From contig BPJI01000001.1 of assembly GCA_026004535.1 (NCBI GenBank), positions 15,915 through 79,914 of the forward strand: a stretch of DNA of 64,000 nt, in the 5' to 3' direction. Each line of letters opens with the position of its first letter. Positions within the stretch are counted from its first letter, which is position 1. This DNA comes from Candidatus Parcubacteria bacterium (lineage in GTDB: Bacteria; Patescibacteriota; Minisyncoccia; UBA6257; HR35). Below, piece after piece: positions 3,206 to 13,770 of the stretch. Both the position numbers and the translations under genes were made by a program. The notes beneath the pieces were generated by a model. The model saw nothing but the letters and a program-made list of their open reading frames with translations. It made no database searches and was not told where the DNA came from.

Positions 3206-3528
3206 ACCTGGATATGAACCGGATATAGTTACCCGGATATACACCGGATGAATTTACACGGATTTAGACCGGATAAGGGCTACCCAGATATCAACCGGAT
3301 ACAGCTAGCCGAATATGAACCGGATATAATTACCCGGATATTAAACGGATAGAACTACCCGGATTATAGCCGGATAAGTTATACCTGGATGTAAACTGGA
3401 TAAATTACCCGTATTATAACCGGATAAGTCACCCGGATTTAAACCGGATGATTTATAAAATATTTTTTATCCGGGTAATCTATTCCGGTAACCATCAGGG
3501 TAAAACAATCCGGTATTCATCCGGGTAA
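3206..3528. repeat. Phased CCGGATA/TATCCGG array a. It is a dyad-symmetric tandem array between the divergent ATPase and folD genes.
   Basis: About 18 forward units (tacccggatat / aaccggatat, 11-12 bp period). Then an AT-rich centre tttataaaatatttttt. Then about 6 reverse-complement units. The array ends 11-13 nt before the folD ATG. Confidence 0.8.
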
Positions 3529-3538
3529 ATGTAAACAA

Positions 3539-4363
3539 ATGATTATTGATGGTAAAAAATTGGCCCAAGAAATTTTAGAAAATTTAAAAGAGAAAAGAAA
3601 AAATTATGAGAAATTAAAAATTGCTGCTTTTTTAATAGGCAAAGGAGAAGAAAAATTAAGTTTTTTAAAAATTAAACAAGAGTTTGCCCAAGAATTAAAT
3701 ATTGAATTTAGAATTTATGAACTTGACGAGAATTTATCTAAAAGAAAAATTAGAAAATATCTAAGTCAAATTTTAAAGCATAAAACAATTCAAGGAGCAA
3801 TTTTCCAATTACCAATTCCTGAAAAATTTTCAACTCAATATTTATTAAATTCTATTCCAGCTAAAAAAGATATTGATTGTTTGTCTTCAAGGATGTTAGG
3901 CAAATTTTATACTGATAATTTTATTATTCGTCCGCCAGCAGTTGAAGTTGTTGATTTTTTAAAAGAAAAATTCAATTTAGAATTTAGGGGCAAGAATGTT
4001 TTAATTGTTGGTTATGGTCGGCTTGCTGGTAAACCATTGGCTCATTATTTTGCTAATTTAAATTCAACAGTTATTATTGCTCAAAGCCAAACAAAAATTG
4101 AAAATTATTTAAAAATTACTGATATTATAGTTAGTGGTGTTGGTAAAGCTAATTTAATTCAAGATTGTCAAAAAGGAGCAATTTTAATTGATTTTGGTTA
4201 TAGTTTTGAAAAGGGAAAAATTTATGGTGATATTGATTTTGAAAAATTAAAAGATAAAGCAAGTTTAATTACTCCAACTCCTGGTGGTACTGGTCCAATT
4301 TTAGTTGCTAAATTATTTGAAAATTTTTTTAAATTATTAGAAAAAGAAAAAGTGGTAATATAG
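3539..4363 (+). CDS. folD: Bifunctional methylenetetrahydrofolate dehydrogenase/cyclohydrolase.
   Basis: Rossmann motif GYGRLAGKP. PTPGGTGPILVA matches the FolD C-terminal consensus TPVPGGVGPMT. Length 274 aa. Confidence 0.8.
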   Translation: MIIDGKKLAQEILENLKEKRKNYEKLKIAAFLIGKGEEKLSFLKIKQEFAQELNIEFRIYELDENLSKRKIRKYLSQILKHKTIQGAIFQLPIPEKFSTQYLLNSIPAKKDIDCLSSRMLGKFYTDNFIIRPPAVEVVDFLKEKFNLEFRGKNVLIVGYGRLAGKPLAHYFANLNSTVIIAQSQTKIENYLKITDIIVSGVGKANLIQDCQKGAILIDFGYSFEKGKIYGDIDFEKLKDKASLITPTPGGTGPILVAKLFENFFKLLEKEKVVI

Positions 4364-4436
4364 TGGGCGGGAGAGGACTCGAACCTCTGACCTTCTCGAC
4401 GTCAACGAGACGCTCTGCCAACTGAGCTACCCGCCC
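4364..4436 (-). tRNA. tRNA-Val (anticodon GAC).
   Basis: The reverse complement folds as a cloverleaf: acceptor GGGCGGG, anticodon loop ttGACgt, T-loop GGTTCGAGTCC. CCA is not encoded. Confidence 0.8.
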
Positions 4437-4726
4437 ACAGTGAGGGAAGCGAACAATGACGGGTGGCTGCAAGGACAACAAGTGTTGCCCTCGTAAATAT
4501 TAGCTACCCGCCTGAACAAAACTTTTAATCTGACTAATTATATCATATTTTTTAAAAAGCCTGAAAACTGAAGCCTAAACCCTGACAGCTGACTTTAAAT
4601 ATTCATTTATTTTCCGTAACCATAACAATGGCTAACACCATTATAGAGTATTAAGTTGATTGAATAACTTTGAGTAATAATATTTAAATTGTCTGCAAAA
4701 TTTTTTCCAAGAGAATTTGATATAGT

Positions 4727-6364
4727 TTATTCTGATAATAATTTTTTAATTGAATCAGGAATATTTGGGTTTTTTAATAAAGCATCAAGAGCATCCTCAG
4801 CATCATTTTTAGCTTGCTCCAATTTTCTTCTTTGTTCCTCTTCCTCCTTTTCCTTCATTCTTCTTTTTTCTTCTTCAGGCAGTGAAGCCCTTTCAACTAG
4901 AATATCAAAAATTTCTTTTCTTGTTATAATTTTTCCTTCAAATTCAATTTTACCAGTATCACCCTCTAGCAATTCTTTAAGATTGTTTTTCATCGTTTCC
5001 TTAAGGTCTTCATCAGCCAATCTATCAATATAATAGAAGTTAATAAGATTTATTAATGTTGCGGTCAAATCTAATCTACCCGTTTCTTTGTCGCGAATTT
5101 GATTGTAAATCAAGGCATCAGCCACTCTCGCCATATCATCGAGCGTCAGAGGAATTCTCTGTCTTCTGCCCTTTTCTCCTTTCTTAAGTTCTTTGTTAAG
5201 ATCATTATGAAATGCGGCAATAACTTTTGCTACTTCTTTACCGATATCCGAATGATTATAAATATCTAAAATACATCCTTCAGGTTTTACCTCGGGTTTT
5301 TTACCTAGCTTATAAGTAAAATAATAATCAGAAGCTAATCGCAAAGATTCTTCTGAAAGTTCAGTCATTCGTTTAAAAACAACTCCTCTGGCTAAAGCCG
5401 GATCAACTTCATTTCTTGCCAAATATTCTTCTGGCGGATTAGTAGAAAAGAAAACCCAAAATTTAGGACCGCTTTTTATTTTTCTACCACCATTTTCCCA
5501 AAGCTGGATTTCTTCTGCTAATTGACCTCTTTTGCCTCTTAATTTAAGCAGGACATCTATCACCTGCGGTTCTGCCAAGCCAACTTCTTCAATATGTAGG
5601 ATAAACCCCTCCCCTTTCTGCTCATCAAAAGAAAAACTGCCATCAGGATTTTTTATTAATCCCATCGCTTTAGGCACGACTCCATATTGAAATTGCCATT
5701 GGGTTCTTTCTGAAAGACCAGCTTGTTTTGCTAACTCTTGCAATTTGGTGCGAATCAGGTTCAATTTTTGTTCTGGGGATAACCATGTTTTTTGCTCTAC
5801 TTCTTGGGCAATCTGAGAAATTTGGATTTGAGTTTCGGATAATTCCAAAAACTCATTCCATCTTCTTTTTTCTTCTTCAGTTTCTGCTTTCGGCACCCAT
5901 TTTCCCATTAGTTCTGAAACATCAGTTTGTCCTGAACAGTAAAAATCAAGTGGTTTTACTCCGCGACCATAGAGAAGTTCAGTGAATTTTTCTGCTAGAT
6001 AGGTTTTGCCGATAGCGGTTGGTGCTTCAATCAAAAGCGGCTGGCGGCGTTTATAAGTCATTGCCATTGCTACTAAAATCTCAAAAGATTCTCTCATTGG
6101 AATAATTTCTCTTTTAATTGCTTCAATGTCTTCTTTTGTAGCATATGTTTCTAATTTTATGATTAATGGTCTTTCTTCATAAGGATTACCAATATAAATA
6201 TATCTTTTTATTGTTTTTTCTCCTGTTTCAGGATCAATTACTTCCTCTTCTTCAAATATAATACCGCCTAAAATTTCTCCTTCAGGTCCTCTTTCTTTTA
6301 TCCTCGCTTCAATTTCTTCTTCTCTTATTTCTTCTGGTGATTTAAAACGAAATGTTTCTGGCAT
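4727..6364 (-). CDS. MoxR-like AAA+ ATPase (AAA_5 type) with N- and C-terminal extensions.
   Basis: Walker A LLIEAPTAIGKTYLAEKF. Walker B ILHIEEVGLAEP. Sensor region FWVFFSTNP. It lies in an operon with a VWA protein. Confidence 0.7.
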   Translation of the reverse strand: MPETFRFKSPEEIREEEIEARIKERGPEGEILGGIIFEEEEVIDPETGEKTIKRYIYIGNPYEERPLIIKLETYATKEDIEAIKREIIPMRESFEILVAMAMTYKRRQPLLIEAPTAIGKTYLAEKFTELLYGRGVKPLDFYCSGQTDVSELMGKWVPKAETEEEKRRWNEFLELSETQIQISQIAQEVEQKTWLSPEQKLNLIRTKLQELAKQAGLSERTQWQFQYGVVPKAMGLIKNPDGSFSFDEQKGEGFILHIEEVGLAEPQVIDVLLKLRGKRGQLAEEIQLWENGGRKIKSGPKFWVFFSTNPPEEYLARNEVDPALARGVVFKRMTELSEESLRLASDYYFTYKLGKKPEVKPEGCILDIYNHSDIGKEVAKVIAAFHNDLNKELKKGEKGRRQRIPLTLDDMARVADALIYNQIRDKETGRLDLTATLINLINFYYIDRLADEDLKETMKNNLKELLEGDTGKIEFEGKIITRKEIFDILVERASLPEEEKRRMKEKEEEEQRRKLEQAKNDAEDALDALLKNPNIPDSIKKLLSE

Positions 6365-6368
6365 ATTT

Positions 6369-6836
6369 TTACTCTAAACTTAATACTGGGCCAAATAAAG
6401 TATAAAAATGAGGGTAAGTAATTTTGTTTTCTATAAAATCTCTTTCAGCAAAAACAATTACTCTTGAACTTTCCGGCATCTTCGTTTCAAAAACATCTTT
6501 GCCTCGATAATCTAATAATTGGAATGAGTTATAATTTGCTAAATGCTTTAATTGATTAAGTAATGGACTTGAAATATCTTTTTTAATTTCTAAAAATATC
6601 CATTTATTTCCCTCAAACGCCTTAATGATTTTTTCAAAAACTTTCTCATCTATTGCGGTTTCATCATAAATTATTTGCTCAATATCTACTATTTTTCTTA
6701 CTTCATTAAAAATCTCATCTGCTTGTAATTCACTTCCCGGTTCCTTTACGATTAAACCTAAATCAAAAATCCGGCTCGGCTGTTTACGAACATTTTGAAG
6801 AAGAAGAATGAATGTATTTAATTGTTCTTTGTCCAT
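6369..6836 (-). CDS. Hypothetical protein in the MoxR-VWA operon.
   Basis: A 155 aa ORF tightly packed between the AAA+ and VWA genes. No recognisable motif. Confidence 0.4.
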   Translation of the reverse strand: MDKEQLNTFILLLQNVRKQPSRIFDLGLIVKEPGSELQADEIFNEVRKIVDIEQIIYDETAIDEKVFEKIIKAFEGNKWIFLEIKKDISSPLLNQLKHLANYNSFQLLDYRGKDVFETKMPESSRVIVFAERDFIENKITYPHFYTLFGPVLSLE

Positions 6837-6928
6837 AATTTTGACTTAATTATTCTTATTTTATTTTACATTTTACTATTATTTTACTATAATAATAATT
6901 TCTTATAAAATACAAATTTTTAGTGGGA

Positions 6929-8554
6929 TTAATATTTTTCCGGATGTCTAATCATATATTCCAAAAGTTCAGCAAATGCCTCAGCAAAATCTTTTTTTCC
7001 TTGGCGACGTTCTTCCTCAGTAACCTTCATTGGCATATTGGCAAAACCATAAGGATAATAATCTCTAACATGTTCAGTACCAGGACCAAGACCAATACCA
7101 ATTAGTTTAACTTTGCCCTCATTCAGAATGCCTTTTATAACTTTACCCAATTCATATTCCGGTCCAGAGTGCTCCGGATCAGGTACTGGTAAACCGTCAG
7201 ACAAAACAATCAAAAAATTGTTCTTGCCTGCATGTCTTAGCAGGCGTTGATAAGCTTCTTGAAGACAGTAGCCATCGCTGTTCCACCTGGCTTGATTATG
7301 AACACCTTCATTAAATGGTTCTTTTTTTGCAGTTGACAATCTATCCCTTAGCTCTTTATTTAATTTATCTTTAAACTCTTTATAAGGAATAATTGTATCT
7401 TGAAATCCTAAAATTTCGTATTGAATACCTAATCTTTCCAATACTTCTGCTAATACTACCACTCCTTTAAATGTTTCTTCAATTTTTTTTCCTTGCATTG
7501 AGCCAGAAAGGTCGACCAAAAGAGAAAAGCGATAATCAGGCTTACGAGGAATGGTTTTTCTCTGCCAAATTTTTTCTAAATACCTTGGGTCAGCTTCAGC
7601 TTGCATTGCTGTTCCCACGTCAAGCTGCGAGCCAGTAGGATATCCCTTTCTCCATTTTGGATGGCGCTCCGGTAAAAAGAATTTTTCCAGACGGTTGTAA
7701 AATGAATTGATAATATCTGCCACTTCTTCATAGGCTTTATCATATTCGGTCATTCTTTCTCTTCGCATTCTTTCTAACTGTTCCTCCAATTTTCTTCTTT
7801 CTTCTTCGGTCCTTTTCCTTTCTTCAGCGGCTCTTTTTTCTTTCTCCTCTCTTTCCCTTCTTTCTCTATGACTTTCTGGTTTATCTATATTTAGTTTCCC
7901 TTCCAATTCTTTATTGATCGCATCTTCAAAATCCTCAAGCTGTTTTTTAGCTTTTCCTCTTAATTCTTCTCTTTTTTTTCTTGGTAGCTTCTGAAAAAGT
8001 TTATCTAATTCCTGTTTTGTCTTTTCTGATAATTTATCTTCTGGATAAGGCATTTCTTCGCCCGATTGGATATTTTCTAAAGCATCTTGAATATCTTTAA
8101 GTTCCTGCTCTGCTTGTTTTTGTTTCATTTCTTGGGCTAATTTTTCCGCTTTCTTTTGTTCAATTTGCTTTTCCAATTCCTCTTTTTCTTTACCAGTAGC
8201 GCTTTTGATTCTTTCTTCCAAATCTTTGATTTCTCTATCTAATTGTTCTTGCTTTTGTTTTGCTTCTTCAATTTGCTTTTGTTTTTCCTCAATTTTTTTA
8301 TTCAATTGTTCAGCTGCCTCCCTTATTGCCTTATCAATTTGTTCTTGAAGTTCTTTTTTTACATCTTCTGGCAATCCCTCGAAAGGATCTAGTTCTTTTT
8401 TTAATTGCTCAATTTCTTTTTGTAATTCTTCTATTCTTTGACTATCACCTTGCTTCTCTGCTTCATTTAACTCTTCTTCTTTCTGTTTTAATTCTTTCTG
8501 TTTTTGTCTAAATTCTTCTATCATCTGTCTTTGCTCTTCGGTATGTAAATCCAT
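6929..8554 (-). CDS. Coiled-coil plus von Willebrand factor A (MIDAS) domain protein. It is probably the C-terminal two-thirds of a longer gene interrupted at an A8 tract.
   Basis: About 300 aa of E/K/Q-rich coiled coil, then DLSGSM (DxSxS MIDAS) with a VWA fold. The same frame stays open upstream for 112 codons, to a TGA that overlaps the stop of ORF 8892-9335. Confidence 0.65.
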   Translation of the reverse strand: MDLHTEEQRQMIEEFRQKQKELKQKEEELNEAEKQGDSQRIEELQKEIEQLKKELDPFEGLPEDVKKELQEQIDKAIREAAEQLNKKIEEKQKQIEEAKQKQEQLDREIKDLEERIKSATGKEKEELEKQIEQKKAEKLAQEMKQKQAEQELKDIQDALENIQSGEEMPYPEDKLSEKTKQELDKLFQKLPRKKREELRGKAKKQLEDFEDAINKELEGKLNIDKPESHRERREREEKEKRAAEERKRTEEERRKLEEQLERMRRERMTEYDKAYEEVADIINSFYNRLEKFFLPERHPKWRKGYPTGSQLDVGTAMQAEADPRYLEKIWQRKTIPRKPDYRFSLLVDLSGSMQGKKIEETFKGVVVLAEVLERLGIQYEILGFQDTIIPYKEFKDKLNKELRDRLSTAKKEPFNEGVHNQARWNSDGYCLQEAYQRLLRHAGKNNFLIVLSDGLPVPDPEHSGPEYELGKVIKGILNEGKVKLIGIGLGPGTEHVRDYYPYGFANMPMKVTEEERRQGKKDFAEAFAELLEYMIRHPEKY

Positions 8555-8891
8555 CTCTACTAATTTTCTTACTTCAGGCCATATATATTCAGTATTGATC
8601 CTAAATCTCTCCTTAGCAGTTAAGATAACTTCCTTTTTGTCTGTTCTTTCTGGATTGGGAATTATTGTACGGCTTCTGCGTACATACTCAATCGTTCTTA
8701 TTAGCGATTTTTCTACCGCTGGATCTAATACTTTACTAAATCTTCGTTGATGCCAATCGCGAATTATTTCTGAACCATATTGGCCGAATCTCGGCCAATA
8801 GCCTAATTGAATAGCAATTATCTCAACTTCAGGCGTGCTTAAAATTACGTTTTCTTCTTTAAATTGGTCATCGTAGACTTTCCTGACATAC

Positions 8892-9335
8892 TCATCTAAC
8901 CCTGGAAATTTTTTTTCTCAACCAATCATTGACCGCCATATCTTCAATAACGTTTTGTAAATAGCCAAAACCAATTTGAGAATAAAGTTCTTGAATTTGC
9001 TCTCTTGAAAGGCCTATTTCTTTGGGGTGAGGAGTGATTGCCCGATGGGCTCCTTCGTGACCAGCCACAAATTTGGCTAACTCGGGACTTTCTTTAATGT
9101 GAAGGGGATCGAAAGTAATAGAAACATCCTCTGGATTAAAAAAACTACCCCTTCCAGGTTTTCCCAATTTAACTTTCATTCTAAAATCTCCTCCAACCCG
9201 TTTAGCAATAATTTCTAAATTTTCCCAAACTTCTTTTGGAATTTCTATTTTTAATTCTTCCGTTTTCCTCGCCGCACCCTCTGGAAAATATTGTCTTGTT
9301 TTAAATTTCTCCATACATATTGTTATTTTACTCAA
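8892..9335 (-). CDS. HExxH metallopeptidase-like N-terminal domain (putative metal-dependent peptidase of the DUF2201_N / COG3864 type). It is probably the 5' part of the same gene as 6929-8554.
   Basis: Motif AGHEGAHRA. The ORF ends in an A8 run. A 1-nt indel there fuses it to the downstream coiled-coil/VWA ORF, giving about 800 aa. Confidence 0.5.
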   Translation of the reverse strand: MSKITICMEKFKTRQYFPEGAARKTEELKIEIPKEVWENLEIIAKRVGGDFRMKVKLGKPGRGSFFNPEDVSITFDPLHIKESPELAKFVAGHEGAHRAITPHPKEIGLSREQIQELYSQIGFGYLQNVIEDMAVNDWLRKKISRVR

Positions 9336-9356
9336 ATTTTTTGATAAAATATCAAT

Positions 9357-10625
9357 ATGTCAAATTCTCTCGAAAAAAATTTTGCCCAAAAACATGAAAA
9401 ACTGGAATCTGCTAAGAAGATTAAAGAAGAAAGAGCTTTAAAACTGGCAAGAGAAATAAAGAGAATAAAAGAAAAAATATCTAAAGAAGCAGGAACAATT
9501 AAAGATTATCAAAGAATAATTGAATTAGCAAAGAAAATAGAGAGTCTTTATAATAAAGCCTGGGAACTTGAAGGTAAATTGACTAAAAAAAATATCTTAG
9601 TTGAACATAGAGTTTTTGGAGCGATTTATGAAGCCAACTTCAGCCCCGAAGGAGATAAGATAGTTATTGGGAGTAACGGTAGAATAATGCAAGTTCTTTC
9701 TTTAACCGAAGGCAAAATATACGAAAGAGGAATATTAAGACCAAAAGTTTTAGCTGAATTTAAGACTGAAGGAGTAGTTTATACAGCTAATTTCAATCCC
9801 GAAGGAGACAAGATAGTTATTGGAGATAGCAGGGGAATAATGAGAGTTCTTTCTTTAACTGAAGGTGAAATAGATGAAAAAGGAATATTAAGACCAAAGA
9901 TTTTAGTCGAATTTAATGTTGAGGGAGCAGTTTATGAAGCTAATTTCAGCCCCGAAGGAGATAAGATAGTTATTGGAAGCAGCGATAAAATGATGAGGGT
10001 TCTTTCTTTAACCGAAGGCAAAATAGATGAAAGAGGAATATTAAGACCAAAAGTTTTAGCTGAATTTAAGACTGAAGGAGTAGTTTATACAGCTAATTTC
10101 AATCCCGAAGGAGACAAGATAGTTATTGGAGGCAACGATAAAATGATGAAAGTTCTTTCTTTAATTGAAGATGAAATATACAGAGGAAAAATATTAATAC
10201 CAAGAGTTTTAGTTGAATTTGAAGCTAATGGAGTGATTTATGAAGCTAACTTCAGTCCCGAAGGAGATAAGATAGTTATTGTAACCAACAAGGGAATAAT
10301 GAAGGTTCTTTCTTTAACTGAAGGCGAAATAGATGAAAGAGGAATATTAAGACCAAAGGTTTTGGCTGAATTTAAGACTAGGTTAGAAATTTATACAGCT
10401 AATTTCAATCCCGAAGGAGACAAGATAGTTATTGGAGATTTCGATAAAATGAAAGTTCTTTCTTTAACTGAAGGCGAAATAGATGAAAGAGGAATATTAA
10501 GACCAAAGGTTTTGGCTGAATTTGAAACTGAAGGATGGGTTTATACAGCTAATTTCAGCCCTGAAGGAGATAAGATAGTTATTGGAGATTTCTATGGGGT
10601 GACGAAAGTTATTGGAGAAAAGTAG
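9357..10625 (+). CDS. Coiled-coil N-terminus plus a 7-blade beta-propeller-like repeat protein (WD40-like blades, about 50 aa).
   Basis: Seven near-identical repeats of ANF(S/N)PEGDKIVIG...M(R/K)VLSLTEGEIDERGILRPKVLAEF. The repeats are also near-identical at DNA level, with a 150 bp unit. Confidence 0.6.
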   Translation: MSNSLEKNFAQKHEKLESAKKIKEERALKLAREIKRIKEKISKEAGTIKDYQRIIELAKKIESLYNKAWELEGKLTKKNILVEHRVFGAIYEANFSPEGDKIVIGSNGRIMQVLSLTEGKIYERGILRPKVLAEFKTEGVVYTANFNPEGDKIVIGDSRGIMRVLSLTEGEIDEKGILRPKILVEFNVEGAVYEANFSPEGDKIVIGSSDKMMRVLSLTEGKIDERGILRPKVLAEFKTEGVVYTANFNPEGDKIVIGGNDKMMKVLSLIEDEIYRGKILIPRVLVEFEANGVIYEANFSPEGDKIVIVTNKGIMKVLSLTEGEIDERGILRPKVLAEFKTRLEIYTANFNPEGDKIVIGDFDKMKVLSLTEGEIDERGILRPKVLAEFETEGWVYTANFSPEGDKIVIGDFYGVTKVIGEK

Positions 10626-10750
10626 CAGAATATCTATTTTCCAATATCTTCATAAAATATTAATGTAGAAAATTCTCTTGAAAAATTTTGAAGATGATAT
10701 AAATATTACTACTCAAAGTTATTCAATCAACTGAATGCTCCATAATAGTA

Positions 10751-12091
10751 TTAGTCATTGTTACTGAAAACCGACTTTAAATATTCACTTATTTCTTCTA
10801 TCTTTATTCTTTCTTGTTTAGTACTATCTCTATCTCTTATAGTTACAGTCTCATCTTCTAATGTTTGAAAATCGATTGTTAAACAAAAAGGAGTACCAAT
10901 TTCGTCTTGTCTTCGGTATCTTCTTCCAATTGAACCTGATTCATCATAAAAACTGATAAAATCTTTCTTAACAATTTGGTAGACCTCTTTTGCTTTATCA
11001 ACTAATTTTTTTTTATTACCTAATAAAGGAAAAACAGCAACTTTAATTGGCGCTAAAAAAGGGGGAAATCTAAAAATTCTTCTTCTCTCTCCTTCAATAA
11101 TATCTTCATCATAAAATTCCACTAAAACTGCCAACAATAGCCTCTCAACACCAACTGATGGCTCAATCACGTAAGGTAAAATTTTTTTCTTGGTTTTTTC
11201 ATCAAAATAAACAAGTTCTTCGCCAGAAAAATGAGAATGTCTTGACAAATCATAATTAGTTCGATTGGCAATTCCCTCTAATTCATCGAATCCCCAAGGA
11301 AATTTATACTCAATATCAGTAGTTGCAGCTGAATAATGAGCTAATTCTTCCCTTAAGTACTCTCTTTTGCGAATATTTTCTTTTTTAAACCCTAATTTTA
11401 AATACCAACCATATCTCTCTTCAACCCAATACTTATACCATTTTTCAGCTTCTTTGGGGTCTATAAAAAATTCAAGCTCCATTTGTTCAAATTCTCGAAT
11501 GCGAAAAATAAAATTTCTGGGAGTTATTTCATTTCTAAAAGCTTTACCAATTTGAGCGATACCAAATGGCAATTTAGTTCTCATTGAATTTAAAACATTT
11601 TTAAAGTTGCAGAACATTCCCTGAGCAGTTTCTGGTCTTAAGTAAGCTTCAGTGGCTAATTCTTCAACTGGACCAACATAAGTTTTAAACATCAAATTAA
11701 ATTGTCTTTCTTCGGTTAACTCTCCACCGCAAAGAGGGCACAATGGTTTATTATCTTTTAATTTAACTTCACCATATTCACCTTTCATTAAATGATCAGA
11801 ACGGAATCTTTGATGACAATTTTTACACTCAACCAATGGGTCTTGGAAACCTTCAATATGACCTGAGGCTTCATAAACTTTTCTTGGACCGACGATTGAA
11901 CTTTCAATCAAAAAAATATTATCTCTTGAAAAAACAATACTTTTTAACCATAAATTTTTGAGATTATTCTTCAGCAAAACTCCTAAATAACCGTAATCAT
12001 AAAATCCCTTAAGTCCACCATAAATTTCAGCTGATTGAAAAATAAAACCTCTCTGTTTACAAATTTGAATTATTGTTTCTAAATTTTTCAT
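10751..12091 (-). CDS. glyQS: Glycyl-tRNA synthetase (dimeric class II type).
   Basis: N-terminus MKNLETIIQICKQRGFIFQSAEIYGGL. Class II motifs. Length 446 aa. Confidence 0.85.
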   Translation of the reverse strand: MKNLETIIQICKQRGFIFQSAEIYGGLKGFYDYGYLGVLLKNNLKNLWLKSIVFSRDNIFLIESSIVGPRKVYEASGHIEGFQDPLVECKNCHQRFRSDHLMKGEYGEVKLKDNKPLCPLCGGELTEERQFNLMFKTYVGPVEELATEAYLRPETAQGMFCNFKNVLNSMRTKLPFGIAQIGKAFRNEITPRNFIFRIREFEQMELEFFIDPKEAEKWYKYWVEERYGWYLKLGFKKENIRKREYLREELAHYSAATTDIEYKFPWGFDELEGIANRTNYDLSRHSHFSGEELVYFDEKTKKKILPYVIEPSVGVERLLLAVLVEFYDEDIIEGERRRIFRFPPFLAPIKVAVFPLLGNKKKLVDKAKEVYQIVKKDFISFYDESGSIGRRYRRQDEIGTPFCLTIDFQTLEDETVTIRDRDSTKQERIKIEEISEYLKSVFSNND

Positions 12092-13770
12092 TGATAAAGA
12101 ACCTGACCAACAGAAATCGGATTTATTGTCTTTTGAATAACTCCTTGACTAAAAGAGCCAGTAGCTGAATATTCGGCTTGAGGAATAATAATAAAGCTTT
12201 GTGGTTCAACATTGGCTGGTAATTCAACTAAAATTTGAAAGGCTAAATCTAATTCTTTATTAACATAACCGAGATTAGCAGGCAATTTGTTTATTTGATA
12301 TATAAAAGCACCGGTTTTCGAATCATACTTTAAATTATCTAAAATTGCATCGCCACCAACTTTACCGGTAAAATTAACTCCCATCGGTAATCTGGTTTTA
12401 ATAGTTAAATTGTCAAAATCTTCACCAATTGATTTTATTTTCAAATGCCAAATAAGAGTTGATGGCTGATTGGGTTGCAAAGGAAATGGACCCTCCGGAA
12501 CAAAAATTGGATCTTGATAAACTAACTTGCTTTCTAAATTAATATCACCAATTATTCTTTTTTCATCTTCCTGAAAAACAAAATATTCTCTGCCTCCTTC
12601 CTCAATTTCAATTGGAATACTCGGTGTTCTAAATTCGGCCCTTATTTTAGTAGTAAAATTTTTATTATTTTCTCCTAAGATTGGGTAACTTCTAAATAAA
12701 GAAACAGCAAAATTAAACTTAACCCTATCTCCAGGTTTTAAAACCAAAAGTTCTGGTTTATTCCTTGAAGTCCAGTAAATAGCTTGCTCAAATTCATTGA
12801 AATAACCATCAGTATTTAAAGAATAAAAATCAAAAGGACCGGAAAAAATAATCTTGACCTGGCCATTTTCTAATATTGTCTGGCTTTTATTTTCTAAAAT
12901 AATCTCATAAAATAAGCTTGAACCAATATTTATGTTTTTACTTTCAGGAGTTGATTTAATGTAAAAAACAATCGGATTTTCTAGAACATTGATTTTAGCG
13001 ATTTCCTTAGTTAAAGAAAAACTAAAATTTTGATAACTAAAATCAACCTTGATGCTAAAAATTCCAGAAGATTTTGAATTCTGAATTTGCCCAATTAAGG
13101 AAACGTTTTTTATTTCTTCAGTATCAAGACTTGGAAATTCCCAATAAAAATTTTCAGTCTGCGGAAAAGATGAGGTCAAAAGAAAATGAGTTGGAGTTTC
13201 AATACTAACTTTAATATTATTTAGTTTTTGTTTAGTTAAATTAATAATACGAAAGTTAGCTTGGAACTCTTGATTAACATAAATTTTAGTCGGGAGAAAA
13301 ATCTGAGCTTTGATTGGAGGATTTTTGACTAAAATCGAGAAATTTTCTTCTTTAGCAAAAATATGATCCTTATCTTCAATCTTATAGTTTAAAACTATTT
13401 TTAAATTTTCCTTTAAATCTCCGGCATTAACAAAAAACAAACTGAGATTTTGAACATTAGTTTTTTGTTGTTCAATTTCTCCTAAAAATAGAGACAAATT
13501 TTTTTCTTGAGGATTATTGACTAAAAAAGCACCATCAGAAAGAGAAATTTTAAGAGTTACATCGGTCAATTTTTTATTTGAACCATTAACAATCTCGATT
13601 TTATAATCATAATTTTCTAAAGATAAAACTTCATTCGGTCCGGTTAGGCCTATTTTTAAGTCTGAAGCTGGGGTTGGTCGAAAATAAATAAAATAGACAA
13701 AAAAAACAATAGATAAAACAAACAAAATAAATGAAAAAATTAAAATTCGATTTAAAAATTTTTCTTTCAT
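12088..13770 (-). CDS. Membrane-anchored large extracytoplasmic protein, hypothetical.
   Basis: Single N-terminal TM helix. A 530 aa beta-rich, N/S/T-rich ectodomain. No catalytic motif. Confidence 0.5.
   Translation of the reverse strand: MKEKFLNRILIFSFILFVLSIVFFVYFIYFRPTPASDLKIGLTGPNEVLSLENYDYKIEIVNGSNKKLTDVTLKISLSDGAFLVNNPQEKNLSLFLGEIEQQKTNVQNLSLFFVNAGDLKENLKIVLNYKIEDKDHIFAKEENFSILVKNPPIKAQIFLPTKIYVNQEFQANFRIINLTKQKLNNIKVSIETPTHFLLTSSFPQTENFYWEFPSLDTEEIKNVSLIGQIQNSKSSGIFSIKVDFSYQNFSFSLTKEIAKINVLENPIVFYIKSTPESKNINIGSSLFYEIILENKSQTILENGQVKIIFSGPFDFYSLNTDGYFNEFEQAIYWTSRNKPELLVLKPGDRVKFNFAVSLFRSYPILGENNKNFTTKIRAEFRTPSIPIEIEEGGREYFVFQEDEKRIIGDINLESKLVYQDPIFVPEGPFPLQPNQPSTLIWHLKIKSIGEDFDNLTIKTRLPMGVNFTGKVGGDAILDNLKYDSKTGAFIYQINKLPANLGYVNKELDLAFQILVELPANVEPQSFIIIPQAEYSATGSFSQGVIQKTINPISVGQVLYQ

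Follow-up and report, generated by a model that had tools for sequence, protein, structure and literature searches.

Several described gene pairs, NorQ-NorD, CbbQ-CbbO, RavA-ViaA and CoxD-CoxE, place a MoxR-clade AAA+ ATPase beside a gene for a VWA/MIDAS protein. In eukaryotic ribosome assembly, midasin/Rea1 acts on Rsa4 and Ytm1, two partners that combine an N-terminal docking domain with a WD40 propeller. Four subsystems of vWA-MoxR ternary systems have also been defined (Kaur, Burroughs, Iyer and Aravind 2020, PMC7159879). Here we describe a related cassette in a 64-kb stretch of contig BPJI01000001.1 from Candidatus Parcubacteria bacterium KatS3mg096, a tiny hot-spring bacterium (the window), where an island between a tRNA-Val(GAC) gene and glyS, the gene for glycyl-tRNA synthetase (GlyRS), encodes four products: an AAA_5 ATPase, a 155-aa protein (p155), an HExxH-coiled-coil-VWA protein whose gene is frameshifted, and a WD40-like propeller (Pfam). 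The propeller gene is one of what we call R genes, whose proteins join a shared ~90-aa N-terminal module to differing C-terminal repeat domains. Inverted and direct repeats bracket the island. Our preferred reading, held with moderate confidence, is that positions 4607/4613 to 10763 are one horizontally acquired copy of the cassette, that it entered glyS by illegitimate insertion, and that the inverted-repeat arms at its ends are relics of R genes.

Like the MoxR-VWA pairs, the cassette sets a MoxR-clade AAA+ gene beside a VWA/MIDAS gene. It differs from them in that its VWA protein has an N-terminal HExxH domain and a ~300-aa coiled coil, in the addition of a stand-alone P-loop-less AAA+ core and a variable repeat-protein partner, and in having no client enzyme gene (nor, cbb or cox) near it; its sequences also lie outside NCBIfam and only just pass the Pfam cut-off for AAA_5. 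With the ternary systems of PMC7159879 it shares a MoxR and vWA core, a third conserved component, a variable non-enzymatic module, a peptidase (putative in the cassette), a patchy distribution and signs of transfer. However, its third component is not VMAP, iSTAND or FtsH but p155, a MoxR-like AAA+ core; its propeller is separate and exchangeable, whereas the published ones are joined to the vWA domain on its C-terminal side; in place of a trypsin or caspase, it has as candidate peptidase the unclassified HExxH domain with which its vWA protein begins; and its hosts are ultra-small Patescibacteria and not multicellular bacteria. A first inspection of the window (the sequence-only reading) had applied this ternary model to the island, and the shared logic holds, although the cassette fits none of the four published subsystems. 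With midasin/Rea1 the cassette has in common a motor of the AAA_5 type, a long charged linker that ends in a MIDAS domain, and partners in which a WD40 domain follows an N-terminal adaptor. Unlike midasin, the cassette divides these parts among separate small proteins instead of one 5000-aa chain, the N-terminus of R, predicted to be helical, may not be UBL-like, and a role in ribosome assembly is not indicated.

The features of the locus, by position in the window, are as follows.

4363..4436, minus strand: tRNA-Val(GAC), the original downstream neighbor of glyS (ARAGORN; Rfam 70.3 bits)
4575..4612, minus strand: displaced ancestral glyS 3' end, made of the left direct repeat (4582-4612) and the ancestral last codons and stop
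4607..4723, minus strand: left arm, read as a collapsed alpha-repeat-type R pseudogene (start codon ATG changed to ATA; stop 4607-4609)
4727..6364, minus strand: predicted MoxR-clade AAA+ ATPase, 545 aa (Pfam AAA_5; AF2/Foldseek; homologues)
6369..6836, minus strand: p155, 155 aa, stand-alone AAA+ alpha/beta core without Walker A
6929..9314, minus strand: HExxH, coiled-coil and VWA/MIDAS gene, split into a VWA open reading frame (ORF; 6929-8554) and an HExxH ORF (8892-9335)
9357..10625, plus strand: intact WD40-type R gene, with the constant N-terminal module and eight 51-aa blades
10663..10763, plus strand: right arm, read as another collapsed R pseudogene with 87% identity to the left one (direct reading)
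10764..10794, minus strand: right direct repeat, the resident part of the glyS 3' end (27/31 match)
10751..12091, minus strand: glyS (glycyl-tRNA synthetase), 446 aa, with a chimeric C-terminal tail (Pfam; alignments with relatives)

The sequence-only reading had interpreted the island as an element that integrated into the 3' end of glyS and regenerated it, and both kinds of repeat on which this view was built are real. The inverted arms at 4623-4705 and 10681-10763 are 87% complementary over 83 ungapped nt (repeat search), and a gapped alignment widens the similarity to ~4720/10665 (about 100-130 nt), so the arms exceed the ~65 bp originally claimed (4607-4684/10703-10768). Their 23-mer core, AGTTGATTGAATAACTTTGAGTA, occurs exactly twice in the 64 kb, once per strand, and none of 100 dinucleotide-preserving shuffles contained a match to it at ≤3 mismatches. 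The direct repeat (4582-4612 against 10764-10794) is identical at 27 of 31 positions without gaps; its 22-mer core is found only at these two sites in the window, and two matches to that core arose in 0/100 shuffles. An additional 'ctgaaaac' (4561-4568) that had been counted with the direct repeat is dispensable, being another way of aligning the first 8 nt with gaps. A weaker third copy of the inner part of the arms lies at 9325-9385, over the start codon of the propeller gene, and matches the reverse complement of 4695-4755 at 70%, with its 9332-9377 part matching 10640-10685 at 78%. Scanning 3500-12500 against Rfam at E<1 returned the tRNA only, so the arms are not a known RNA. Base composition and codon usage, which had been proposed as a check, give a weak signal for foreign origin: island GC is 33.3% compared to 30.0%, placing it in the top 6% of equal-sized windows.

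The two copies of the glyS end indicate how the island came to be there. The right-hand copy is the present 3' end of the gene and reads ...EYLKSVFSNND*, with its stop at 10751-10753. The left-hand copy with its flank reads ...INEYLKSAVRV* on the minus strand, and its TAG stop (4575-4577) falls at the codon position where the 444-aa GlyRS relatives stop, implying a protein of 444 aa, two residues shorter than the present one. Among the 44 closest GlyRS relatives listed, 39 have 444-446 aa (29 of them 444), and most end in YLKEKLKF*. Downstream of the relic stop comes TGATATAATTA, with GGCGGGTAGCT 22 nt further on; in the related contig L143 the same 11-mer, TGATATAATTA, lies 25 nt ahead of the tRNA-Val 5' end, GGGCGGGTAGCT. 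Because of the position of the stop and the spacing of TGATATAATTA, we take the left copy and its flank to be the old end of glyS, still joined to the sequence that originally lay downstream, which includes the promoter region of the tRNA. The earlier identification of the right copy as the true end and the left as a decayed one is thus correct about which copy now serves the gene and reversed as to which is old and which is new.

Empty sites in relatives, whose GlyRS proteins are 83-86% identical in the closest cases, support this reconstruction. In L143, the closest GlyRS relative with genomic context (86%), glyS is followed after 39 nt by tRNA-Val(GAC) on the same strand and, after another 33 nt, by folD on the opposite strand, an order equal to the flanks in the window minus 6 kb. 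The complete genome KatS3mg097 (L001), a sister strain with a GlyRS of 71% identity, has glyS, 175 nt, tRNA-Val and folD; its tRNA-Val is identical in sequence to that of the window, and synteny is kept on the other side of glyS, where DUF11-like and p218 genes lie upstream. The comparison with relatives that the sequence-only reading had called for thus turned up the unoccupied arrangement twice, and the insert has ~31 nt of duplicated glyS sequence on each side. Since a deletion in the relatives could not have made such a relic here, the segment is an insertion into the 3' end of glyS, between that gene and tRNA-Val.

We found that the insertion did not restore the gene that it entered. In the present glyS, the resident body and the resident copy of the 31-mer are followed by four new codons and a stop (agt aac aat gac taa), and these codons, SNND plus stop, are the reverse complement of the end of the right arm (its last 12 nt, antisense). 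Because the new codons are right-arm antisense, glyS was not regenerated but cut by 12 nt and patched with island DNA. The ancestral tail and stop, together with the tRNA-Val promoter region, are shown to be displaced by 6.15 kb, and the working gene ends in foreign codons. At the left junction the R-relic stop overlaps the first six bases of the 31-mer, a microhomology of AAATAA, and the right junction is blunt, with no microhomology.

The arms themselves appear to be remains of a cassette gene. At 30 loci in other genomes, an R gene starts ~2-30 nt past the stop of the ATPase gene (ATG CCn GAA TCT TTT GAA AAA CAT TTT GC; MPESFEKHFAQ), and R genes lie 3' of the ATPase gene in nearly all loci whose contigs reach that far. 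Their shared N-terminus is predicted to be helical, and the repeat domains that follow it include WD40-like 51-aa blades, 29-aa helical repeats (GLAGVGTKEAMELRERLLKEGA...) ending in ...EEFRRKHFADNPTLIAKSYSTGWxIYNGIICRYGYEE*, a 56-aa repeat type and others. In the window, the left relic starts 5 nt past the ATPase stop with ATA TCA AAT TCT CTT GGA AAA AAT TTT GCA, and its N-terminus, ISNSLGKNFA, is fused directly to the tail DNLNIITQSYSINLILYNGVSHCYGYGK*. This tail matches the tail of the helical R proteins by tblastx to eleven loci, by tblastn of the consensus tail (E=8e-6) and in an alignment by eye. We considered whether it might be the 3' end of the intact WD40 gene and rejected this, as it matches the alpha-repeat tail. 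Because the position and sequence of the R start and the helical-R tail all match, the left arm reads as an R gene without its internal repeats. The right relic has a stop at codon 2 (ATG then TAG) and an indel, and is truncated 16 nt before the R stop. We conclude that both arms are, by their sequences, collapsed R pseudogenes that have lost all internal repeats, plausibly by recombination between KHFA motifs, since KHFA is present in both the R N-terminus and the tail. What had been described as a 9-nt 'spacer' separating the left arm from the left direct repeat belongs to the R relic, whose last codons it holds (Y G Y G K *).

Searching with the ATPase identified 59 metagenome loci (contigs and loci are designated L plus a number), and everywhere the operon order is HExxH-coiled-coil-VWA, p155 and AAA (tblastn maps). 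The cassette is widespread in Patescibacteria. Inverted repeats flank the operon in ~20 of 23 self-compared loci and in the 94-kb contig L144, a metagenome-assembled genome (MAG) contig from NCBI, and range from 67 to 1250 nt at 85-100% identity. Those in individual loci are as follows.

L095: 897 nt, 99%
L120: 1134 nt, 95%
L102: about 800 nt, 90%
L100: about 590 nt, 93-98%
L103: 614 nt, 86%
L107: 568 nt, 87%
L092: 208 nt, 97%
L109: 245 nt, 93%
L121: 144 nt, 96%
L087: 164 nt, 88%
L082: 67 nt, 85%
L144: 1250 nt, 87%

According to the gene models, the arms in these loci are R genes or arrays of R genes that face outwards on both sides. In L103, for example, an alpha-R and a type-3 R lie to the left of the operon, and a type-3 R and an alpha-R to its right. 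The upstream R copy is often a stump (81 aa in L109, 141 aa in L082, 128 aa in L092), and the copy behind the ATPase gene is usually whole. Many contigs end inside an arm, with 100% identity over 95-133 nt. A de Bruijn assembler stops at a long inverted repeat, and many of the contigs are only 4.6-6.8 kb long because assembly breaks there. Over their first 115 nt, R genes have a mean identity of 90% within a locus and 76% between loci, where the 100% values at contig ends may be artefacts. One R gene in L103 is a mosaic, its 5' end 95% identical to one partner and its body 86% identical to another, and therefore recombination among R 5' ends does happen. In ~99% identical contigs from related samples, R proteins of 218, 257 and 286 aa are encoded (L095 5582-6238, L097 4275-5048 and L137 787-1647), and therefore repeat number changes quickly within a population.

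With the arms read in this way, the order in the window is R-relic', WD40-R', operon, R-relic (the prime marking the mirror-image copies). Two derivations explain it equally well: a single deletion between direct R 5' ends in a mirrored two-gene array like that of L103, or a single inversion between inverted R 5' ends in an order like that of L092. We had considered that the operon must have flipped, and this is not required, as the single deletion explains the order equally well. The inverted repeats had been proposed as the ends of a transposon-type element; they are instead best explained as decayed copies of the cassette gene R, and the same layout recurs in many genomes.

The cassette occupies different sites in different genomes, and these are housekeeping regions. 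It lies next to tRNA-Ser(GCT), tRNA-Ser(GGA), tRNA-Arg/Ala or tRNA-Gln genes, between L10/L12 and a class I aminoacyl-tRNA synthetase gene in L147, between GAPDH/L25 and GlmS/Mur regions in L144, downstream of RecG and CCA-adding enzyme genes in L148, and downstream of RelA and ClpA genes in L149. No syntenic partners of the other genes in the window were found in the flanks of the cassette loci. Between genomes the ATPase is 73-81% identical, the VWA protein 61-78% and p155 59-78%, compared to 26-46% for comparable housekeeping genes. Because the cassette proteins are so much more alike than the flanking housekeeping genes, their distribution is best read as recent horizontal spread. Searches for a means of movement gave negative results: Pfam scans found no recombinase among the island proteins, as the sequence-only reading had also stated, and no integrase or transposase appeared in ~10 kb around four Pfam-annotated loci (both sides of L144 and L147, the upstream side only of L148 and L149). 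No direct repeat longer than 12 nt was present at the outer arm ends of L100, L109, L082, L121, L092, L103 or L087, and copies of tRNA ends elsewhere in seven loci amounted to none apart from a local hairpin (L083/L085) and an AT-rich 11-mer (L090). ATPase relatives on viral contigs were likewise absent.

We next turn to the proteins, none of which has a second copy in the window, in keeping with the earlier remark that the island genes occur nowhere else in it. The ATPase is 100% identical to protein KatS3mg096_021 and has more than 120 homologues at 73-85% identity. It scores 26.5 bits against Pfam AAA_5 (cut-off 22) and has the Walker A sequence APTAIGKT, in which GKT is present. A sequence search of the PDB with the ATPase found no match, and the best Foldseek matches to its AF2 model (pLDDT 71) are NorQ, CbbQ, McrB, dynein and Rea1. 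Judged by this model, the ATPase is a member of the MoxR/dynein/midasin clade. The best structural matches of p155 are also to NorQ and CbbQ, and the midasin AAA was matched as well; with its P-loop lost, p155 probably serves as an inactive, ATPase-like subunit. In a search with a p155 profile, stand-alone proteins of 140-170 aa fell into 113 clusters (at 50% identity; P0361-P0473), which suggests a wider, unnamed family of small P-loop-less AAA+ cores.

The HExxH and VWA ORFs, previously listed as separate, are one frameshifted gene, as orthologues are single ORFs of 780-806 aa (782 aa in both L100 and L109). A run of eight A (A8, 8909-8916) holds the one extra A that splits the gene; the orthologues have AGAAAACG there. 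The Logan contig L081 (run DRR290133; window 4408-9668) is base-for-base identical, including the A8 run and the left junction. Either decay or phase variation at a homopolymer, in a coiled-coil region rich in AAA/GAA, may account for the frameshift. Breaks in the VWA gene also occur in L082, L095, L121 and L149. Taken with the two dead R genes, the frameshifted VWA gene marks the copy in the window as one that, to judge from its sequence, is eroding. The VWA protein of the window scores 48.6 bits against CobT_C, and the intact orthologue of L109 scores 46.6 bits against VWA; in the PDB, the domain has weak matches to the midasin MIDAS domain and to NorD. The HExxH motif is HEGAHR. Pfam searches with the N-terminal 280 aa of three orthologues gave no match to the HExxH domain even at E<10, and this includes DUF2201_N (PF13203 / PF09967), to which the metallopeptidase had been tentatively assigned. 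The other expected families, AAA_5, VWA and WD40, were all recovered, and together with the CobT_C match and the structural matches to NorQ and CbbQ they bear out the description of the cargo as a MoxR-type AAA+/VWA system with a repeat-protein partner. Searches of the cassette proteins with NCBIfam and PADLOC returned nothing meaningful, and we found no paper on the cassette or on genome KatS3mg096.

The intact R gene has WD40/propeller Pfam matches and 153-nt tandem repeats, and the N-terminus of its product is 59% identical to the R N-terminal consensus (E=8e-18). Its start codon and that of the divergent operon are 42 nt apart (9314-9357), and a TTGACA that resembles a -35 box of the operon lies across the R start codon, on the opposite strand. 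A scan for promoters and terminators gave matches at or below chance frequency. Exact-sequence look-ups of the propeller and of the GlyRS of the window matched no record. A motif, KSPEE[LI]KEE(E/K), lies near the N-termini of both the ATPase (6310-6340) and the R proteins (9400-9440); it might be a common docking peptide, for instance for the MIDAS site.

Our preferred reading can be put as follows. The core operon encodes a ~780-aa protein in which an HExxH domain (a putative zinc peptidase), an E/K-rich coiled coil and a VWA/MIDAS domain follow one another, then the 155-aa AAA+ core and the 545-aa AAA+ ATPase. R genes stand behind this core, and usually also ahead of it in mirror image, with freely exchangeable repeat domains. 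A block consisting of R-relic, WD40-R, operon and R-relic entered glyS 12 nt before its stop, duplicating a 31-nt target. Integration would have been illegitimate, either of the microhomology or template-switch type or through a staggered break with fill-in, and we infer that entry involved neither a cassette-encoded nor a site-specific recombinase. The outermost, mirror-image R genes would have collapsed by deletion of internal repeats and then decayed to 87% identity. As for function, the AAA+ ring, perhaps mixed with p155, would drive conformational work via the MIDAS protein on or through the R proteins; R would dock by its constant N-terminus as an interchangeable specificity subunit, and the HExxH domain would be the output. 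By analogy, the function of the cassette would then follow the chaperone/conflict logic of the MoxR-VWA systems, and also that of midasin, which acts on WD40 proteins.

Several observations weigh against this reading or parts of it. The closest relative with an empty site is only 86% identical in GlyRS, so that it is the duplicated relic, not a comparison of strains, that dates and orients the event. Illegitimate recombination does not usually duplicate 31 nt of its target, a length that an att core would explain, and the insert ends 0 and 16 nt from R stop codons, as expected of an element with a defined terminus. In 5 of ~15 contexts a tRNA gene lies within 20-260 nt of an end of the cassette, which is above the expectation from tRNA density and, in a minority view, hints at targeted integration. 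The strong conservation of the ATPase could reflect constraint instead of transfer. At the level of the proteins, the model of the ATPase is of moderate quality (pLDDT 71), the HExxH domain matches no family, and the proposed function of the cassette is drawn from distant structural similarity.

The alternative that survives best is that the mirror R genes are a working recombination device, one that flips the operon or converts R genes by homologous recombination between the constant 5' ends of opposed R genes, changing the R variant that is co-transcribed behind the ATPase, and that the window holds a burnt-out example of it. There is a precedent in the sap locus of Campylobacter fetus, in which inversion is reported to take place between the 5' conserved regions of opposed sapA homologues around sapCDEF (see the references listed in PMC1950947 and PMC4943207). 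As in sap, a conserved operon lies between opposed variable genes with conserved 5' regions, there can be several such genes per side, and the repeats break assemblies. Inversion in the cassette would be a prediction of this likeness in layout, and unlike sap its variable genes encode intracellular-looking repeat proteins, not S-layer proteins. Such a device would account for the inverted R 5' ends, up to 95-100% identical, on either side of the operon in many loci, for their being 90% alike within a locus and 76% between loci, and for the mosaic R gene of L103. It would also suit the scant room for promoters (~2-30 nt between the ATPase stop and the R start, and 42-100 nt between the operon start and the divergent R), and the order in the window equals that of L092 after one flip. 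However, no pair of contigs shows both orientations, and all of the matches that look like flips come from similarity among R genes and so are uninformative. Several of the 100% repeats stand at contig ends and may be assembly artefacts, the arms of L144 and L103 are only 86% identical, and a flip changes nothing where the arms are identical. The order in the window is also reached from an L103-like mirrored array by one deletion, and the promoter scan stayed at chance level. We regard an inversion device as doubtful.

A broader version of this idea makes the cassette a previously undescribed conflict or sensor module of Patescibacteria that spreads horizontally without a recombinase, in which a MoxR/MIDAS/peptidase engine is bracketed by mirror arrays of receptors and the constant 5' region of the R genes, which would encode an adaptor, serves as recombination substrate in a sap- or shufflon-like switch that flips the engine or converts and reshuffles the receptor genes. 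We put this forward tentatively, as unlikely. Within it, the expansion and contraction of repeats would diversify the receptors and the window would hold a dead copy that keeps its entry scar, a proposal that we offer as speculation with a rather low chance of being right.

The sequence-only reading was close to a transposon model, in which a non-autonomous element with ~100-bp terminal inverted repeats is moved by a transposase acting in trans and leaves a 31-nt target-site duplication. The succession of direct repeat, inverted repeat, cargo, inverted repeat and direct repeat is what it predicts; divergence is the same for both kinds of repeat (87% identity each), as one event would leave it, the limits of the insert coincide or nearly coincide with R stop codons, the inverted repeats form the exact start and finish of contigs L095 and L120, and the cassette occupies many different sites. 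Against this, the arms are gene relics that elsewhere are whole R genes of varied type and length and not conserved ends, and contigs that end at long repeats are the expected outcome of assembly. No duplication flanks the repeats at the seven other loci examined for one, no transposase was seen in or near any copy examined, and the 64-kb window holds no second copy of the pair of arms. To our knowledge, 31 nt is also far longer than the target duplications made by transposases. We judge the transposon model to be improbable.

Equally little speaks for an island placed by a site-specific (tyrosine or serine) integrase, which would have had a circular form with a 31-bp attP identical to the glyS 3' end and an integrase since lost or encoded elsewhere. 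A direct repeat at the 3' end of a gene adjoining a tRNA is the classical att geometry. The island in the window resembles att genomic islands in that a direct repeat of 31 nt encloses foreign DNA, which has the 3' end of a housekeeping gene on one side and a tRNA gene on the other. In addition, tRNA genes adjoin the cassette in five contexts, and the adjacent tRNA-Val carries a second duplication scar. Unlike att islands, however, it has no integrase, either in the island or in ~10 kb around the four Pfam-annotated loci; the end of glyS was replaced and not restored; the 6 nt of microhomology with the R stop region at the left junction suggest an illegitimate join; and other copies are at unrelated sites and lack tRNA-fragment or flank repeats. 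We give this model a slim chance. A cassette that is ancestral here and was deleted in relatives, its repeats being leftovers of local rearrangement, would fit with the rearranged downstream region of glyS among relatives (L141, L142 and L002) and is very improbable, as a deletion elsewhere cannot create a second glyS end with the ancestral stop here, and the cassette sits at unrelated sites in other genomes, where it is far more conserved than the host genes around it.

Returning to illegitimate insertion of a cassette with R relics at its ends, this reading implies that a layout of direct repeat, inverted repeat, cargo, inverted repeat and direct repeat can arise without a transposon, as mirror-image gene copies at the ends of a cassette and an illegitimate insertion would together mimic terminal inverted repeats and a target-site duplication. 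It also defines a compact four-part MoxR-VWA system whose ATPase is 73-85% identical across distantly related ultra-small bacteria, and whose features are an extra, apparently inactive AAA+ subunit, an unclassified HExxH domain, and modular R partners whose genes stand inverted to each other on the two sides of the operon. The genomes of Patescibacteria are very small, and few defence or sensor systems have been recognized in them. A widely shared and evidently transferable cassette is a candidate for such a system, and natural transformation is a candidate route for its recombinase-free spread between epibiotic cells.

Some further observations concern the distribution and surroundings of the cassette. 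An ATPase that is 78% identical to that of the window (P0072) is labelled Aenigmatarchaeota, and a contig labelled WOR-3 (L146, 8030-9651) has only small fragments around a p155 homologue; these labels may reflect mis-binning or transfer beyond Patescibacteria. The tRNA-adjacent cassette ends are at L083 3333-3426, L085 4082-4175, L092 7312-7400, L102 354-514, L109 683-842 and L111 48-121. The tRNA contexts are Val, Ser-GCT, Ser-GGA, Arg/Ala and Gln, and the 3' end of the tRNA faces the cassette in four of the five.

The downstream neighbor of glyS varies in close relatives, being SHMT in L141 (7339-8729) and RNase J in L142 (7336-9202), and in L002 (9215-9293) tRNA-Val is inverted, 5 nt past glyS. 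From these gene orders, the 3' flank of glyS appears to be a rearrangement hot spot in the clade. In the window itself, one more feature lies between the tRNA and the displaced glyS end.

4437..4510, minus strand: small insertion in the tRNA gene, made up of 4437-4499 and 4500-4510 (direct reading)

The first part is a 64-nt GC-rich segment that is unique in the window, and the second is an 11-nt copy of the tRNA 5' end, GGCGGGTAGCT. This fragment sits where the tRNA should begin by comparison with L143, 22 nt past TGATATAATTA (4535-4545), and therefore 75 nt would have been inserted after tRNA position 11, with an 11-nt target duplication. Only 70 nt from the island, the scar in tRNA-Val thus repeats the pattern of inserted DNA between directly duplicated ends. 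The tRNA fragment and the insert fold into a hairpin with a 7-bp acceptor-like stem.

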